Below, in pieces: positions 25,705 through 32,645 of a DNA stretch of 64,000 nt. Position 1 is the stretch's first letter. Each line of letters starts with the position of its first letter. The stretch comes from a bacterium (GTDB taxonomy: Bacteria; Hydrothermota; 32-111), in the NCBI GenBank assembly GCA_050239825.1, contig JBFXGO010000001.1, forward strand, positions 3,188-67,187. Direction: 5' to 3'. A program made the translations under genes and the position numbers. Under the pieces are notes generated by a model. That model made no database searches. It was not told where the DNA came from and saw nothing but the letters and a program-made list of their open reading frames with translations.

Positions 25705-25888
25705 GGCGGGTTCTTCCAATCCGAAGATATCCTTTTCATTAATATTTATGTCCGTTACCTAAATGGAAAAACGGTTACCCTAAAATCATTGCTCAATTAT
25801 ATTACCTCTGCCAATCCTTCGTTAATCTCTTTGGAGAACTCTCTTGTGAATGCTAATCCCTCTTTACACAACTTCCTTGACAAGTCTC
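25705..25888 (-). repeat. 190-bp repeat, copy 1. It is contiguous with the transposase-like fragment and is an inverted copy of 62422-62613.
   Basis: Reverse complement aligns to 62422-62613 at about 94% identity (12 mismatches by eye), including the shared taggGtaaccgtttttccatttaggtaacgg segment. Confidence 0.8.
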
Positions 25889-25896
25889 GAAAGTTT

Positions 25897-26136
25897 TCAT
25901 AGAGGTGTTCCAAGTCCCCGCTCAATATACCCATTAGCATAATCATCATTACTTGACAGATATATCTCTCGCTCACTCTTCATTATTCGGTTCAATGTCT
26001 CCTCCAATAACAACTGCAAAGAACTGTTGCTTAATTCATTAATGTCAGCTATAATATCTTTTGGTAGGGACTCTTTAGGGTTCATTGGGTTCCTCCATGT
26101 AAAAGTTTTTGTTCGCTTTTTGGAGAGAGTCTGCAT
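25897..26136 (-). pseudogene. Transposase-like N-terminal fragment, possibly IS256/mutator family; truncated and frameshifted.
   Basis: ...LEETLNRIMKSEREIYLSSNDDYANGYIERGLGTPL resembles the IS256 N-terminal region (E..HLG...RNGY..R.L.T). A +1 shift continues into ...DLSRKLCKEGLAF...EVI*. No DDE core follows. Confidence 0.35.
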
Positions 26137-26232
26137 ACTCTCTCCAAACCTTTTTTAGTCTCCTTCTCATTAATCTTATTATATTCCACTCCTAATATTT
26201 TTACACAACTTTTATTATACTCCCTATACGGC

Positions 26233-26503
26233 AAATGACTTTACAAAGATACTTGAAGATAAGAAGATAAAGATAAGCATGGACGGCAAGGGTCGTGCTG
26301 TGGATAATATCTTCATAGAGCGGTTGTGGAGAACAGTTAAATATGAGCATGCTTACATCTGGAGGTTTGATACGATTAAAGAGCTAAGAGAAGGACTAAA
26401 AGATTACTTTGATTACTATAACAATAAAAGAGAGCATCAATCATTAGGATACAAAACTCCATCTGAAGTTTATGGAGGTATTATAAATGTTCAAACAGCT
26501 TAA
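26233..26503 (+). pseudogene. IS3-family transposase (OrfB) C-terminal remnant.
   Basis: ...FTKILEDKKIKISMDGKGRAVDNIFIERLWRTVKYEHAY...YYNNKREHQSLGYKTPSEVY is the characteristic tail of the IS3 integrase-core domain. The DDE core and OrfA are missing. Confidence 0.75.
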
Positions 26504-26533
26504 TAATAAACACAATTTATCAAAATCTTGTGT

Positions 26534-26562
26534 CTTGACAGGAGAGACATTATCCAATAAAA
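26534..26562 (+). promoter_or_regulatory. Sigma70-type promoter TTGACA-N17-TAAAAT for the restriction-modification operon.
   Basis: Consensus -35 at 26534-26539 and -10 at 26557-26562, 25 nt upstream of the proposed ATG at 26588. Confidence 0.5.
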
Positions 26563-26587
26563 TATATATGTATATTTTAATTAAAAC

Positions 26588-28079
26588 TATGTCAAACAAT
26601 AATTCTAAATCAACAATAGGAAAAAACCTTAAAAAGATAAGGCCAAAAGAAGATGTTTCTCAGGATCGTTTATCCATGCTGACTGATTTGTCGCTGAATA
26701 CTATTGCTACAGTAGAATCTGGCTTGAATCCAAACCCAACTATTGAAACACCGACAAAAATTACCCAAGCATTAGATGTAAAAGTGGACGACCTAATTAA
26801 AAAAAATATGAGCCAAACTATTACTTCATTATTGAATAAAACAAAAATTGATCCCTCGTGGTCTTTTTCCGATAAAACAAGAAAAGATACGGCGTATATT
26901 ACGCATGGATATCATCGTTACCCCGCAAAATTTATTCCGCAAATAGTTTCTCGTTTGGCGGAAAAATATACGCGAATAGGTGATTTTATTGTTGATCCGT
27001 TCGGTGGTTGCGGAACAACCCTTGTTGAAGCAAAAGTTATGGGACGACCATCAATTGTCGTTGATATTAACCCCGTTGCTGTTTTGATTACGAAAGCAAA
27101 AATCACAGCAATTGATCCTGCTAAAATTGAAAAGGAATTTACAACTTTTCAAAAGAGATTGGAAACTTACAGCGAAAAAACAAAAGTAAAAGCCCCTAAA
27201 CACGAAAGAATTGACTATTGGTTTAAGCCAGAAGAAAAAAGAAAACTTGCTTTTATTCTTGCCGAGATTTCAAAAATAAAAGATCAAGATGTCCAAGATT
27301 TCTTTTTCTGCGGGTTTTCAAACATTCTCAAAAATTGCTCAATCTGGCTACAAAAAAGCAATAAACCAACGAGAGATTTTGATAAAAAGCCTTCAGAGCC
27401 GATTAAAGCATTTTTGAAACAAATAAAAATGATGTTGCGTGGTAATGCACGATTATTTGAATTGTTATCAGAAAAAGGTTATTTAAAAATTCCGAGCAAG
27501 GTGATTTGCACGGATGCAAGAACAATTCCGGCAAAAGATAATAGCGTTAGTTTGATTGTTACTTCGCCTCCTTATGTAACCTCTTACGAATACGCCGATT
27601 TACACCAGCTCACTGCTTTATGGTTAGAATATACCATAGATTTGAGCGACTTCCGAAAACGATTTATTGGCACTTCATATCACAACAAAAAAGATTTAAC
27701 TCTTAATAGCGTGATTGCAGAAAATATCAGAAAAAAATTGTTAGAAAAAGACAAAAAAACTGCCGAGGAAGTTTCAACATACTTTAGCGAAATGAATCAG
27801 GTATTTGTTGAAATGAAAAGAATATTAAAGAAAGGCGGGAAAACCTGTATTGTTATTGGCAATACGAGCTTAAAGGGCGTTGAAATACTTAATGCGGAGG
27901 TTTTTGTTGAGCAATTACAAAACTTGGGATTAAAAATCGCTGATATTATCAAAAGAGAAATTCCGTCAAAAAATTTGCCGTCCGTTCGAGACGAAAAGAC
28001 GGGTAAATTTGCGAGCATAAATGATAAAAATAGAGTTTCTGTTTATCCAACAGAATACATTTTGATAATGGAAAAATAA
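26588..28079 (+). CDS. DNA amino-methyltransferase (N6-adenine or N4-cytosine) with a fused N-terminal XRE-family HTH domain.
   Basis: HTH IGKNLKKIRPKEDVSQDRLSMLTDLSLNTIATVESG. AdoMet motif I HRYPAKFIPQIVSRL...GDFIVDPFGGCGTT. Catalytic motif IV IVTSPPY about 185 aa downstream. The ORF-track start at 26487 is rejected (it lies upstream of the promoter). Confidence 0.8.
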
Positions 28080-28083
28080 AACT

Positions 28084-28752
28084 ATGACTATAGACGACCT
28101 TATCAAAATTTACGAAACAAAAAAGAAAAAATATGGCATAGAAGCATATCGTCATATTTCAAATGTTTTGAAAGAAGCAAAGGAATTGCACAAAAAAGAT
28201 TTTACAGGTGATGATCATGAGCAATCATGGCGCGCTTTCAAGGGTAAAAATTTAGAAAAAATGATTGAATATATTATAACAGACGAGGTTAATGCTCTTG
28301 GGTTACAAGTAATAAATGGCAATAGCCTTGAAAGGACGAATGGATCAAACCTTTCAAAAGAGTTGAGTTTAGTTAAAAGAAATTTGATTGTTGATTATGG
28401 CGAGTTCGGCTCGCATTTGCCCGATGTAGATTTGATTATTTACGACCCAAACACAAGCAAAGTTGTCGCTGTTTTATCAAGCAAAGTAACTTTACGGGAA
28501 AGAATAGCCCAAACTGGTTATTGGAAAATAAAACTTGCCTCCGACGAAGCGACAAAACATATCAAAGTTTATTTCGTAACGCCTGATGAGGACGGAACGC
28601 TAACGATTAAAACACCTGCGAAGAAAGGACGAGCTATTGTTGAAGTAGACACAGACGGCAGTTATGTTTTGAGTGAGACGGACATTGAGGAAAGTAATAA
28701 AGTAAAAATGTTTGACAAGTTTATCGATGACTTGAAAAAGCTATTGAAGTAA
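28084..28752 (+). CDS. Putative type II restriction endonuclease (222 aa).
   Basis: Sandwiched between two MTase genes with 4-nt and 3-nt spacers. Acidic/lysine cluster ...YGEFGSHLPDVDLIIYDPNTSKVVAVLSSK... is compatible with a PD-(D/E)xK-like site. No other homology recognised. Confidence 0.45.
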   Translation: MTIDDLIKIYETKKKKYGIEAYRHISNVLKEAKELHKKDFTGDDHEQSWRAFKGKNLEKMIEYIITDEVNALGLQVINGNSLERTNGSNLSKELSLVKRNLIVDYGEFGSHLPDVDLIIYDPNTSKVVAVLSSKVTLRERIAQTGYWKIKLASDEATKHIKVYFVTPDEDGTLTIKTPAKKGRAIVEVDTDGSYVLSETDIEESNKVKMFDKFIDDLKKLLK

Positions 28753-28755
28753 TTT

Positions 28756-29847
28756 ATGACCCAGATCAAGAATGATAACCGAATGGGGTGGATCCGCAAT
28801 TTAGAGAAATTGAGCAAAAAAGAAACTGATAGCTATTTTGTTGAATATGAGATTGCGACAGAGTGCCATATAGCAGGTATACTGGATTACGGTACCGGTA
28901 TTATTTTGTGTGGAGGGTTAACCATAGAGAAAGATGAGAATGGGCTTTATCATTATTTACTAAAAGTAAGGTATGCGGGCGTAAAAGAACCTTATTACAA
29001 TAATAAAGCGAATAAAAAAGGATATTATTTTAAGGACGGCATACTTGGTGAACTCCTTTCCATTTTTTCTTTATACTTTCAATGTCGTTTTTATTTGATA
29101 GCAACTTTTACTGGAGAATTAACCAATCATGGATTAAGAATAAAAACAGGAAATAAGTTCATTTATAGAGCGTGTAATCCAGTCATTCACCCACAAATTT
29201 TTTCTTCCAAGAGTAGAGACCTTGCGATTGGATTATCCGATTTTTTAGATACAATAAAATCATTAGACACGAAGTATCATCAACAGTTTATTTTGACATG
29301 TTTTCACTATGCCCAATCATTAAAAGAAATAGGCGTTGACAGCGAAATGGTATTTATCAGGTTGGTATCCGCAATTGAATCAATTTCAAAATTTATCAAA
29401 TTGGATAAAAAAGTTGATTTATTTAATGGAAAAACTTTTGAAAATATTGTAAAGAGCGATGCTCTTTCAAAAACAGAAACGGAAGAATTAAAGAAAACTT
29501 TTGAGAATAGAAAATCAAAAGCAAGATTTATTACTTTTATTGAAAAATACTCAAGCGGATATTTTAAGGGCGGGAATTACAAAGCAAAACACTGCAAAAT
29601 CTCTAAAAAGCAGCTGCCAAAAGTTTTGCGGACTATTTATGACGCTCGCTCAGCTTATTTACATAACGGCGAGCCAATGTATTTAAGCCAGCCAATGTAT
29701 GGTGGAGAAAAATGGGACACTGATCCGAATATAGGCATGATAGTAGACAATAGGTCTTTCTCCGTTTCGCAAAAATTACCATTTACCTATTTTTTTGAAG
29801 GTTTAGTTAGACAATGTTTGTTGAATTTCTTGAAGCAAAAAAAATAA
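28756..29847 (+). CDS. Uncharacterised protein (363 aa) with a C-terminal Rx4H motif; possible HEPN/Abi-like nuclease.
   Basis: ...LRTIYDARSAYLHNGEP... contains R-x4-H. No MTase or PD-(D/E)xK motif. Embedded in the RM operon. Confidence 0.4.
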   Translation: MTQIKNDNRMGWIRNLEKLSKKETDSYFVEYEIATECHIAGILDYGTGIILCGGLTIEKDENGLYHYLLKVRYAGVKEPYYNNKANKKGYYFKDGILGELLSIFSLYFQCRFYLIATFTGELTNHGLRIKTGNKFIYRACNPVIHPQIFSSKSRDLAIGLSDFLDTIKSLDTKYHQQFILTCFHYAQSLKEIGVDSEMVFIRLVSAIESISKFIKLDKKVDLFNGKTFENIVKSDALSKTETEELKKTFENRKSKARFITFIEKYSSGYFKGGNYKAKHCKISKKQLPKVLRTIYDARSAYLHNGEPMYLSQPMYGGEKWDTDPNIGMIVDNRSFSVSQKLPFTYFFEGLVRQCLLNFLKQKK

Positions 29848-29848
29848 T

Positions 29849-30532
29849 ATGGATAAACTTCAAATAGAATCAACAACACTTTGGGATTTTCCGAGACAAA
29901 ATTATGGTGACAAGCCACATGGAAACAATAAATACAATGGCGTAACGCCGGCTTTTGTCATTTGGAATTTACTCCAAAGATATACCAAAGAGGGTGATTT
30001 AGTTGTCGATCCGATGTGCGGGAGCGGAACAACAATTGATGTTGCAAAAGAATTGAACCGAAAAGTAATCGGCTATGATTTGAATATTGTTAGGTCCGAT
30101 GTAATTAAAAACGATTCTCGGAAAATCCCGCTTGCGGACAATTCTGTTGATTTTGTTTTTATTGATTCACCATACTCCGATAATATTAATTATTCTGACA
30201 ACAAGGAATGTATCGGTAAAATTTCTTGCGAGAAAACAGAATTTTATGATGAATTAGAAAAAACCGCTTCCGAAATTGCAAGAATTTTGAAGCCAGGAAA
30301 AGTTATGGGCTGGGTTATTGCTGATCAATGGATTAAAAAGAAATTTACGGCTGTTGGATTTTTGATGTGGCAAAGATTGGAAAAACATTTTGAGCCTATG
30401 GATATTGTTTGTTTAACAAGACACAATCAAACGTCAAACACTGGAGTTTGGCACAACAGAGCAAGGCAGTTTAATTTTTATTTAAGAGGTTTTAAATATT
30501 TGTTTATAATGAGGAAGCCAGAAAATAAATAG
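29849..30532 (+). CDS. Small DNA amino-methyltransferase (227 aa).
   Basis: Motif I context NGVTPAFVIWNLLQRYTKEGDLVVDPMCGSGTT (pfam01555-like). Motif IV FIDSPY about 50 aa later. Then RILKPGKVMGWVI. Confidence 0.75.
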   Translation: MDKLQIESTTLWDFPRQNYGDKPHGNNKYNGVTPAFVIWNLLQRYTKEGDLVVDPMCGSGTTIDVAKELNRKVIGYDLNIVRSDVIKNDSRKIPLADNSVDFVFIDSPYSDNINYSDNKECIGKISCEKTEFYDELEKTASEIARILKPGKVMGWVIADQWIKKKFTAVGFLMWQRLEKHFEPMDIVCLTRHNQTSNTGVWHNRARQFNFYLRGFKYLFIMRKPENK

Positions 30533-30945
30533 GCCGTATTTCGCAAAGCGAAATGCGCCGCCAAAAGAGATGTTGCCCCACCACTGAAAGAACTGCTATC
30601 TCGGTGCTTTACTTTTTACTATTATAATTGTTTTGGAATATTCCAAAACGCGCATTATATAATGAATTTGAAAGAAAAAGCGATGAAATTTCAATTCAAT
30701 ATAATTTCCTTAAAATTACTTAAAGTTTAACAAAAATATTTTGATTTCAACCATACCCTCCCAAATACTCATCAATAGAGGATGTTTGAGCAGTTTGGCA
30801 AAATAAAAAAGTAAAGTACCGATATTAACATTTTTTAACAGGGGCTATAGAATGCTAATTTTGACTGAGATTCAGAGAAATGATAAAATAAATACAATCA
30901 GTAGATAAAGAATTATTTGTAATTGCCTGATAAGGAACAAAAGAA

Positions 30946-31862
30946 ATGGCAAAAGCAATAGATACAAAAAATGTCACAAAAAATTCGGTAAATTAAAAGC
31001 TTTGATAATGTCTCTATCAGTATTGATAAGGGTGAAATCTACGGGTTTTTGGGTCTAAACGTAGCGGGGAAGACAACAACAATCAGAATGCTTTTGGGAA
31101 TGATGAAACCGAACGGAGGCACTGCATATATTAACGGCAAAGAAGTTAATGCAGGCAATCATAAATTATGGAAAGACATCAGATACTTGGTTGAAATGCC
31201 TTATTCGTATCCGGAGCTGAGTGTTTATGAGAATCTCGAATCAGTAAGACGGTTAAGGGGAATCAGCGACAAAAAGGTTATAGATTTTGTAATAAAGAAA
31301 CTTCATCTTACTGAATATAGAGATAAGTATGCAAATAAACTCTCTCTTGGAAACGCACAGAGATTGGGTATAGCAAAAGCGATAATGCATAATCCGAGCA
31401 TACTGTTTTTTGATGAGCCTTCAAATGGGCTTGACCCTGCAGGCATAGTTGAGATACGGGAGCTTTTGATTGATTTGGCAGAGAATCACGGTGTAACAAT
31501 TTTTATTTCAAGCCATATACTCGGTGAAATTTCCAAATTTGCTTCCCGAATCGGAATTATAAACAACGGCAAACTTATTCAAGAGGCTGATTCACAAAAA
31601 ATCAATATATTGAATCAAAAAAAAACTTATAGTGGATGTTATTGACAGAGAGGGTGCTTTGAAAACCCTTGCGGATAAAGGATTCTCCTGCTCAAAATCC
31701 TCTGAAGGATTCTTAGAAATAAGCGACGAGGATGTCATTAATCATCCGGAAAAAATATCGACTATGCTTGTGGAGTCAGGGTTCCCTCCAATTTTGCTGA
31801 GACAAAAAGAAGAGGATTTGGAGTCATATTTTTTCAATGTAATCAAAGGAGAAGAGAGATAA
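30946..31862 (+). pseudogene. ABC transporter ATP-binding protein, disrupted by three frameshifts.
   Basis: AAGGA RBS. The ATG 30946 frame gives MAKAIDTKNVTK then a stop. Walker A GLNVAGKTTT, ABC signature LSLGNAQRL and Walker B ILFFDEP lie in the next frame (31049-31645). The C-terminal domain sits in a third frame (31632-31862). Shifts are at the A6 run 30978-30983, at ttg|ata 31002-31007 and at the A9 run 31617-31625. Confidence 0.75.
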
Positions 31863-31872
31863 AATAAAAAAT

Positions 31873-32645
31873 TTGTCTTTGATGATGTGGATTGAATTTT
31901 TCAAATTGAAAAAATTGAAAGTATTTGTTGGGTCGATGATATTCTTTGCATTTATAGCTCTAATGCTCGGATTGCTTATTTTTATATCCAAGCATCCTCA
32001 GATAATGGGCTCATCTGATATTTTATATGCTAAGCCGTCAGTATTTATAAATGCGGATTGGCCATTTTTTTTGAGAATAATGATACAATTTATTTCAATG
32101 ATGGGAATACTCGGCACGGATATGCAACCAGTTGGATATTCGGCAGAGAATATTCTGATAAAACAGCAAAGGATATTCTTGCAACGCCGATTTCAAGGGC
32201 TAATATATTTATAGCAAAAATGATTGTAGTCTTACTCTGGTGCATCCTTCTGGTGATAGTATTTTTCATTTGCAGTATGATTGTCGGTTTTGCGACAAAT
32301 CTTGGAGGATTGTCCAATCCGTTTTTTATTCATTAAATAAAGTTATTTTCAATTTCAGAATTGCTGACTATATGCCTGTCAACCCCTGTGGCTTTTTTGG
32401 CAAGTTACAGCAGAGGATATCTTCTCCCTTTGGGTTTTCTTATATTTATTTTAATGTTTTCCAAATTGATCGGGGTCGGACTATCCGTACTGGCGCCATA
32501 TTTCCCATGGGCGGTTCCCGGCTTATATGGAACTTCTGTCGGCAATTCACAATTGGGTTTTGTGTCTTATTTTATATTCTTTCTGACATGCTTGTTGGGA
32601 TTTTTGGCAACAATATTGTGGTGGCGATATGCTAACCAGACTTAA
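31873..32645 (+). pseudogene. ABC-2 family permease, fragmented by one or more frameshifts and an in-frame stop.
   Basis: The N-terminal TM segment (31873-) and the conserved GNTRHGYATSWIFGREYSDKTAKDILATPISRANIFIAK (32058-) are in different frames, with a T8 run near 32063. There is an in-frame TAA at 32334-32336, and the frame then continues open to 32645. Confidence 0.65.

Follow-up and report, generated by a model that had tools for sequence, protein, structure and literature searches.

A mobile BsaWI-type restriction-modification cassette with a candidate HEPN effector gene in its variable slot

Type IIP and IIF restriction enzymes of the BsaWI/CCGG family (NgoMIV, Cfr10I/Bse634I, SgrAI, Kpn2I and AgeI) share a catalytic domain in which a PD dipeptide, a lysine and an R-(D/E)-R triplet can be recognized, and the residues R169-D170-R171 of BsaWI, together with K165, constitute the motif reading the CCGG core in this family (PMC4652773). 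Restriction-modification (R-M) operons are also visited by RNases: at least 16 clades of HEPN proteins are linked to them, and the HEPN protein ApeA is embedded in R-M operons of epsilonproteobacteria (Anantharaman et al. 2013, PMC3710099). ApeA is a mostly helical protein of ~580 amino acids (aa) composed of three domains (N, Mid and a split HEPN) and operates as a tRNA anticodon nuclease switched on by deoxydinucleotides that arise from DNA degradation (bioRxiv 10.64898/2026.01.26.701840). Embedded defence genes have been described in Hma, BREX, DISARM and type I R-M systems, and the position itself predicts a defence function, a principle called guilt-by-embedding (Payne et al., bioRxiv 10.1101/2024.01.29.577857). 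In the present work, we analyze a four-gene locus in a stretch of 64,000 nucleotides (nt), hereafter the window, from a bacterium of the Hydrothermota (GenBank assembly GCA_050239825.1, contig JBFXGO010000001.1, positions 3,188 to 67,187). It associates a type II R-M core, formed by the methyltransferase (MTase) M1, the restriction endonuclease (REase) R and a second MTase M2, with a gene for a 363-aa protein, G3, nested between R and M2. The reading that we favor, with fair confidence, is that of a mobile BsaWI-type R-M cassette carrying an autonomous HEPN abortive-infection gene as cargo, the two together providing a layered defence.

The four genes are intact, share the plus strand, span positions 26589-30532 and are separated by 4, 3 and 1 nt in the open reading frame (ORF) listing, the tight coupling noticed in an original prediction made from the letters of the window. 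Because all four have many homologues, they are judged to be real genes and not chance ORFs. The first encodes a helix-turn-helix (HTH) domain fused to M1; its mechanical ORF (26487..28079, 530 aa) just reads back into the end of a transposase remnant, and the true start is the ATG at 26589, which lines up in a DNA alignment with the start codon of the C (controller-type HTH) gene in related cassettes. R (28084..28752, 222 aa), G3 (28756..29847, 363 aa) and M2 (29849..30532, 227 aa) follow. The limits of nucleotide homology in a blastn comparison with 80 related metagenomic cassettes define a mobile R-M unit of ~4.0 kb on the plus strand (26550..30534). With a GC content of 0.338 against a window mean of 0.398, the cassette is the lowest-GC 4-kb stretch in the window, ~2.6 standard deviations under the mean, and the AT-rich islet recognized at the outset is indeed one.

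The identity of the locus as an R-M system leaves little room for doubt. The 222-aa protein had been put forward as the endonuclease on the grounds that it lacks MTase motifs; it matches the Pfam model RE_BsaWI (PF18643) over profile positions 2-105 of 105 with an E-value of 3.7e-34 and 117 bits for a cut-off of 26.2, and it appears at NCBI as 'BsaWI family type II restriction enzyme' (MGE3062031.1). Its putative active-site motifs are P113-D114, K134 and R138-E139-R140, and the K-x3-RER spacing equals that of K165/R169-D170-R171 in BsaWI, as established by motif reading and not by structural superposition. On this sequence evidence, R is a type II restriction endonuclease of the BsaWI/CCGG family, which probably recognizes a CCGG-containing site protected by the two amino-MTases. 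Like the members of this family, it shares the catalytic-domain model with its PD, Lys and R-(D/E)-R elements and is flanked by modification methylases, and a controller-type HTH gene precedes it in its relatives. It differs from BsaWI in length (222 aa versus 272 aa) and in its second catalytic acid, which would lie elsewhere than D175 of BsaWI or E201 of NgoMIV, and it differs from the family in being accompanied by two conserved MTases instead of one and in being ~90% identical across Patescibacteria and other uncultivated lineages. The R-M core is an ordinary one, a new member of a known family that NCBI had already named.

The two flanking amino-MTases anticipated by the original prediction are recovered by both Pfam and PADLOC. 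M1 (26808..28079, plus strand, 423 aa) matches PF01555 at 7e-20 and the PADLOC model MTase_II at 3e-58; its motif I, DPFGGCGTT, precedes a TSPPY motif IV with ~150 aa between them, and its PDB matches are 2zie and an N4-cytosine MTase. The compact M2 matches the same two models (2e-24 and 1e-30, respectively), carries its motif I, DPMCGSGTT, ahead of a DSPY motif IV, has no obvious target recognition domain (TRD) and finds an N4-cytosine MTase, 2zie, CcrM and M.MboIIA in the PDB. With motif I ahead of motif IV, M1 and M2 show a permuted order in comparison with the beta-class enzymes of solved structure that they match. An SPPY motif IV is generally a hint of N4-cytosine methylation, and a motif beginning with D a hint of N6-adenine methylation; the TSPPY of M1 accordingly suggests N4-cytosine as its target and the D-first DSPY of M2 hints at N6-adenine. 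A likeness to DpnII/MboI-type systems, which had been proposed with one MTase for double-stranded and one for single-stranded DNA, stands as far as the gene count is concerned, since both comprise one small REase and two MTases in a single operon. It does not extend to the proteins: the REase belongs to the BsaWI/CCGG family, both MTases belong to PF01555 and have the same permuted order where DpnII/MboI systems combine a Dam-like D12 enzyme with a beta-class one that acts on single-stranded DNA, the MethyltransfD12 model reaches 19.6 bits on M1 for a cut-off of 22, and no sign of a division between double-stranded and single-stranded substrates is seen.

A metagenome scan with the REase yielded more than 518 loci, the best 80 of which were fetched and form the basis of the cassette counts given here (loci are designated L followed by a number). 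In tblastn comparisons, the order [HTH]-M1-R-M2 recurs throughout these 80 loci, most of which are 74-93% identical to the window for M1, 82-96% for R and 80-96% for M2. The REase has 3983 homologues, and its best 120 clusters (built at 90% identity) are all at least 88% identical to it (88-95%); the homologues bearing a name come mainly from Patescibacteria (Nomurabacteria, Kaiserbacteria and Gracilibacteria) and from 'Candidatus Acididesulfobacter'. R, M1 and M2 are unusually conserved for R-M genes, and the REase clusters span several Patescibacteria classes as well as phyla unrelated to them, which implies very recent and frequent horizontal spread, in support of the horizontal acquisition of the operon that had been suspected. 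A glycosyltransferase encoded near the cassette clusters at 90% or more with a protein from candidate division WOR-3, and the host of the window is accordingly probably not a member of the candidate phyla radiation. No vector was found: searches of GenBank phages and PLSDB plasmids matched neither the REase nor G3, and IMG/VR likewise gave nothing for G3. As judged by sequence comparison, the ancestral order of the cassette is C(HTH)-M1-R-M2. A divergent branch is formed by L118 and L119, where the REase is 83-84% identical, an M2-like gene (65-67%) stands upstream of R and no M1 was detected. In L080 and L096, the 5 kb that follow R are devoid of any M2, which is not always retained.

The junction between R and M2 is where related cassettes part. 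Homology to sister cassettes is confined in blastn to 26550-28755 and 29840-30534; the segment between, 28756-29847, finds a counterpart in only three of these 80, namely L052, L053 and L057 (the last lying on the same contig as L001), all of which carry G3. Among the 68 related loci where M2 follows R, a set that derives from the 80 best out of more than 518 and includes near-duplicate contigs, R and M2 are 0-60 nt apart in 29 (43% with an empty slot), 13 hold a small ORF of 77-95 aa and 26 a larger same-strand cargo of 0.4-2.9 kb. The spacing of M1 and R is almost constant, mostly 8 nt. Cargo genes start 1-10 nt past the stop codon of R, and M2 begins directly after them. All-against-all BLAST separates at least 18 unrelated cargo modules, among which are Septu (PtuA and PtuB in L091, 3e-167 and 2e-68), an OLD nuclease (L054 and L112, 3e-75), PD-Lambda-5_A with a 287-aa partner (L080, 5685-7942, 2e-47, with no M2 within 5 kb after R), a trypsin-like candidate PDC-S45 (L046 and L049, 2e-103), HNH proteins found by Pfam (L095, L107 and L122) and ATP-binding cassette (ABC) ATPases of the AriA/Old type found by PADLOC (L071 and L090). 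About half of the modules are without annotation, some of them with predicted transmembrane segments, and include proteins of 144, 214, 227, 250+116, 327 and 843 aa.

G3 displays the positional traits by which embedded defence genes are recognized: it lies on the same strand, it is nested between conserved genes at a position that varies among relatives, and the other occupants of this position that can be named are defence systems and not mobilome or housekeeping genes. We hold with considerable confidence that the 363-aa gene is an exchangeable cargo in a variable slot and not a core component of the R-M. The integrated four-gene system that the original prediction implied gives way to a cargo gene lodged in an M1-R-M2 unit, most homologues of this gene being found without such an R-M. 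Cargo exchange probably proceeds by recombination, with the highly conserved R and M2 as arms. With the embedded defences of Payne et al., the slot has in common variable same-strand genes nested between conserved defence genes, known defence systems interspersed with genes of unknown role, and occupants whose homologues also occur outside of an embedding system. It differs from them in belonging to a small type II R-M, with a single slot extending exactly from the stop of R to the start of M2, and in residing mainly in Patescibacteria and uncultivated lineages hardly sampled by RefSeq-based surveys.

The commonest occupants of the slot are two small unannotated families of 77-95 aa and 80-92 aa, which jointly account for 13 of the 68 loci (L050, L051, L064, L072, L077, L079 and L089 among them). 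The first has the consensus ...MTKSQI.LAW.KV..ETHK...LL.CQVLLGKIE.GEN..FN..I..KT..FYC.Q...Y; the one member scanned, in L050, has no Pfam match. Transmembrane or coiled-coil segments were predicted by eye in the occupants of L081 (2132-3115), L048 (2354-2788), L108 (5671-6315) and L055 (2006-2662), and these proteins are, by their sequences, candidate membrane-disrupting effectors.

What the cargo of the window might do is suggested by its predicted structure. AlphaFold divides G3 into an N-terminal alpha/beta, beta-rich domain (~1-150) and a helical C-terminal domain (~160-363), in a confident AF2 model based on a 38-sequence alignment (predicted local distance difference test, 84; predicted template modelling score, 0.87). 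Helix 284-304 bears an R298-x4-H303 motif (RSxYLHxG, nt 29647-29664). Its arginine and histidine do not vary among 38 G3 homologues (50-81% identity), and in a set of 52 sequences that extends down to ~20% identity their conservation is 90% or more. The HEPN_Apea model finds weak matches in five of the 38 homologues, the best with an E-value of 0.007, below threshold, and none in the G3 of the window; one homologue has been named 'Apea-like HEPN' by JGI, and NCBI calls G3 itself hypothetical. The C-terminal domain, as modelled, is plausibly HEPN-like, and the Rx4H label that the 363-aa protein had received at first sight acquires a meaning with the invariance of R298 and H303. That G3 acts as a HEPN RNase effector in defence appears to us somewhat better than an even proposition. 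Nothing significant was found for G3 in Pfam, NCBIfam, PADLOC or PHROGs, and none of the HEC and PDC models of the PADLOC library recognizes it. Against PDB sequences, phmmer and a profile search returned noise only, and hhalign gave no signal between the G3 family profile and the HepT sequence from L025.

The helical bundle could also be merely HEPN-like, in which case G3 would be a non-catalytic R-M accessory binding nucleic acid or setting specificity or regulation, for example by helping M2, which is devoid of a TRD. We give this idea very little credit. A catalytic HEPN domain would be expected to keep the R and H of its Rx4H motif, and neither varies within the family; this family resides mostly away from any MTase; and M2, 80-96% conserved and found also where the slot is empty or holds unrelated cargo, does not need G3. 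A stricter version in which G3 is a requirement of M2 was rejected on the same conservation of M2 in cassettes lacking G3. About 15% of the G3 homologues carry an additional C-terminal gamma-glutamylcyclotransferase/AIG2-like domain of ~165 aa (PF13772, PF06094), seen at L008-L010 (7001-8605) and in the proteins P0064, P0073, P0088, P0121 and others.

G3 shares with ApeA the layout of a single polypeptide in which an N-terminal non-catalytic domain is followed by a C-terminal Rx4-6H HEPN domain, and it has a weak sequence similarity to HEPN_Apea; a ligand-triggered RNase is a plausible analogy. The two proteins differ in that G3 has 363 aa and a beta-rich N domain, whereas ApeA has ~580 aa and is predominantly helical. 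Gao and colleagues reportedly presented ApeA in 2020 as a single-gene HEPN defence, and PADLOC-DB contains models for it. Assignment of G3 to ApeA was rejected, since neither its architecture nor the profile models fit: ApeA_NTD1 matched one G3 homologue at an E-value of 0.078 and at the wrong position, the window protein had no match and PADLOC was silent. The activation of ApeA by deoxydinucleotides nevertheless suggests, by analogy, why HEPN genes might travel with nucleases.

The distribution of G3 informs on its relationship with the R-M. A database clustered at 90% identity contains 288 homologues at 50% identity or more across phyla, and a profile search of 1.84 billion representatives retrieved 581 with E-values of 1e-3 or lower, of which 126 reach 1e-30 or lower. 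Within 185,579 species genomes, G3 occurs at 32 loci, all in metagenome-assembled genomes (MAGs), and its hosts belong to Patescibacteria, Acidobacteriota, Omnitrophota, Nitrospira, Latescibacterota, Actinomycetota, Eisenbacteria and a few Firmicutes and Gammaproteobacteria. It is found within the same R-M cassette only in its closest relatives, which are 81-82% identical (L001-3, L052/53 and L057); because these have a common 'TAA TTT ATG' junction, sequence indicates that the in-cassette copies stem from one ancestral insertion. In no other fetched locus (the comparison covered 29 of the 32 species-genome loci) do M1, R or M2 stand beside a G3 homologue. Dispersal of the genes in related genomes, which the original prediction had named as evidence that would speak against it, is what is seen for the 363-aa gene and not for M1-R-M2.

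Elsewhere, G3 keeps varied company. It neighbors a serine recombinase and a type I R-M with an AAA_13 protein in L004, a small XRE gene in L007, AbiE, IS3 and HNH genes within a defence island in L008, and HicAB inside a his operon in L011; the gene immediately upstream of it encodes an MmeI-type enzyme in L017, an EcoRI MTase in L015 and HsdR in L026; and further copies directly follow TIR, SIR2-like, HepT, DUF4209 or DUF6119 genes. The adjacency to R-M genes of three types, recurrent but non-specific, fits the general association between R-M and HEPN genes and argues against a dedicated complex of the PrrC kind between G3 and this particular R-M.

Such a complex deserves consideration nonetheless, as PrrC/EcoprrI offers a precedent for a predicted HEPN RNase gene nested in an R-M operon and for layered DNA and RNA defence, and a model joining R-M and HEPN has been formulated (PMC3710099). 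G3 would then be a functional subunit of a four-gene system, a latent RNase held inactive by the R-M complex and firing when a phage anti-restriction function disables it. Its embedded, translationally coupled position inside the operon and the placement of its homologues immediately after the genes of an MmeI-type enzyme, an EcoRI MTase or HsdR (L017, L015 and L026) agree with this proposal. However, PrrC has an ABC-ATPase N domain, occurs almost exclusively in type I R-M systems and is regulated by the R-M that houses it, whereas G3 lacks an ATPase domain and has an N domain of another kind, its host system is a type II cassette, and outside of this cassette it mostly occurs alone. Moreover, the slot is empty in 43% of the sister cassettes, most G3 homologues have no R-M neighbor and stand instead in contexts such as the his operon/HicAB of L011 or next to TIR, SIR2-like, AbiE or DUF4209 genes, and the R-M partners that do occur are of unrelated types, so that a specific protein-protein interface is unlikely. 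A partnership of the PrrC type is in our opinion unlikely as a whole.

It is even less probable that G3 is an addiction toxin which stabilizes the cassette in the genome by post-segregational killing or selfish maintenance, the HTH or another factor serving as antitoxin, and that it has no part in phage defence. No conserved small partner adjoins G3 across loci, an MNT-type nucleotidyltransferase is not consistently present, and the other occupants of the slot are recognized anti-phage systems, not toxin-antitoxin pairs.

The interpretation of the locus as an R-M cassette with an autonomous HEPN cargo can be translated into a mechanism in two layers. In the first, incoming DNA that lacks methylation would be cut by R at a site of the CCGG type, with M1 and M2 shielding the host and the HTH controlling the expression of the R-M. 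In the second, G3, co-transcribed with the R-M, would act when restriction fails. It would be kept inactive in uninfected cells, presumably by its N domain functioning as a sensor or regulator; upon infection, the HEPN domain, as the dimer typical of the superfamily, would cleave cellular or phage RNA and bring translation to arrest in the manner of abortive infection.

Several observations weigh against this interpretation. No antitoxin or immunity partner of G3 was identified, which leaves the silencing of a constitutively co-transcribed RNase unexplained; the N domain is without recognisable fold, making the sensor role a guess; and both RNase activity and phage defence are predicted for the G3 family from fold, motif, distribution and the company it keeps in the slot, where the counts come from the best 80 of the scan loci with their near-duplicates. 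On the R-M side, R has T and K at the offsets of the second acidic residue (D175 in BsaWI, E201 in NgoMIV), and the second catalytic acid may come from elsewhere in the protein; the BsaWI chain in the PDB, 4ZSF, was missed by phmmer with R as a query, being too divergent. Finally, palindrome avoidance over 477 kb of cassette-bearing contigs plus the window is unspecific: the observed/expected ratio (O/E) of CCGG is 0.61-0.68 in carrier DNA, many other 4-mers are as low and no hexamer stands out.

Under a Markov expectation, GATC (O/E 0.25) and CTAG (O/E 0.09) are depleted in the whole window far below CCGG (0.61), a hint either of pressure exerted by further R-M systems of the host or of a bias in overall composition.

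A broader proposal, which we advance tentatively and regard as rather less than evenly probable, makes the cassette a portable carrier of defence genes. R and M2, ~80-95% identical between lineages, would serve as arms and their junction as a dedicated cargo slot through which immune modules of one or two genes are shuffled between Patescibacteria and further uncultivated bacteria; G3 would found a new HEPN family whose N domain senses infection, possibly through a small molecule or a DNA-degradation signal as in ApeA. If the carrier proposal is true, the remaining occupants of the slot make up a ready list of new defence candidates. Apart from this proposal, G3 is a rare family, known only from MAGs, that no Pfam, NCBIfam or PADLOC model recognizes; its candidacy as a new immune effector of the HEPN type, endowed with a new N domain, is well supported. 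The precisely defined slot in a small type II R-M extends guilt-by-embedding beyond Hma, BREX, DISARM and type I R-M systems and reaches lineages, those of the candidate phyla radiation (CPR) and others, with a poorly known immune repertoire. To our knowledge, the immune repertoire of the CPR has been reported as largely CRISPR-free.

The XRE-type HTH (26589..26807, plus strand) forms residues 1-73 of the first protein, is fused in frame to M1 and is homologous to the separate HTH gene of relatives; HTH_19, HTH_26 and HTH_3 match it below threshold and an RstR-family model at 6.5e-8. In relatives, this domain is encoded by a separate XRE gene of 70-72 aa heading the operon (70 aa in L001/L002), which ends with ...AAAAAATAA and is followed by the ATATG of M1, where the window reads ...AAAAAAAATATG. 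An alignment with five cassettes locates the fusion point, AAAAAATAAAT in relatives versus AAAAAAAAT in the window: a 2-nt deletion at 26803/26804 erased the TAA stop codon and brought HTH and M1 into one frame. An HTH-MTase fusion as the ancestral state was rejected, since relatives carry a stop codon at this point. HTH-M1 is thus a derived fusion of the controller-type HTH gene; it could also result from an assembly error. Of the built-in regulator resembling a C protein that had been described at the outset, the controller-type HTH remains and its built-in state turns out to be secondary, the gene being separate in relatives.

Upstream of this gene, a sigma-70-like promoter with TTGACA (26535), a spacer of 17 nt and TAAAAT (26563) on the plus strand (26535..26563) is the sole 11/12 match within 25.6-31.2 kb and is putative as to its function. 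The two hexamers and their spacing are as initially reported; sites of this class are not enriched in the region, 22 being found for 20.6 expected from shuffles, and the -35 element lies outside the cassette homology. The -10 hexamer falls inside cassette DNA and TTGACA in the 46 nt that separate the stop codon of an IS3-family transposase remnant from the cassette. This flank may be an end of the insertion sequence (IS), and the promoter, if real, would be a hybrid formed at the junction and foreign to the mobile unit. A perfect inverted repeat of 9 nt, TAAAATATA-N4-TATATTTTA (26558..26579), overlaps the -10 element and is a weak candidate operator for the HTH, held with low confidence because the DNA is AT-rich. 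In an alignment with relatives, it is not kept as a perfect palindrome.

The IS3-family remnant that the original prediction saw on the plus strand is well supported as the 3' end of a transposase gene, covering the C-terminal part of the integrase core (26222..26503). The ORF 26279..26503 encodes the last ~64 residues of the enzyme, with matches to rve_3 at 4e-16 and to the NCBIfam model transpos_IS3 at 4e-19 (model positions 305-368 of 369), and its frame, read from the sequence by eye, reaches back to ~26222. Two short minus-strand ORFs (25797..26136) had been labelled IS256-like by a resemblance seen by eye (EREIYL...NGYIER). This label found no support: they are without a Pfam or NCBIfam match, without a tblastn match in plasmids and without a BLAST match to the two Mutator-family transposases present among the fetched loci.

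Just downstream of the cassette (30947-32645), the gene of an ABC-transporter ATPase is interrupted, a 16-codon ORF running into a stop and the conserved ATPase sequence continuing in a different frame, and the permease-like region that comes after it is broken into several short overlapping ORFs. The split reading frames represent either pseudogenes or errors of assembly at homopolymers; in the second case, the 2-nt deletion between C and M1 is equally suspect. A near-perfect hairpin, CGTATTTCGC-AAA-GCGAAATGCG, occupies positions 30535-30565, starting 3 nt past the stop codon of M2 and exactly at the right-hand end of the cassette homology; it has no T-run and was hence not called by the terminator scan.

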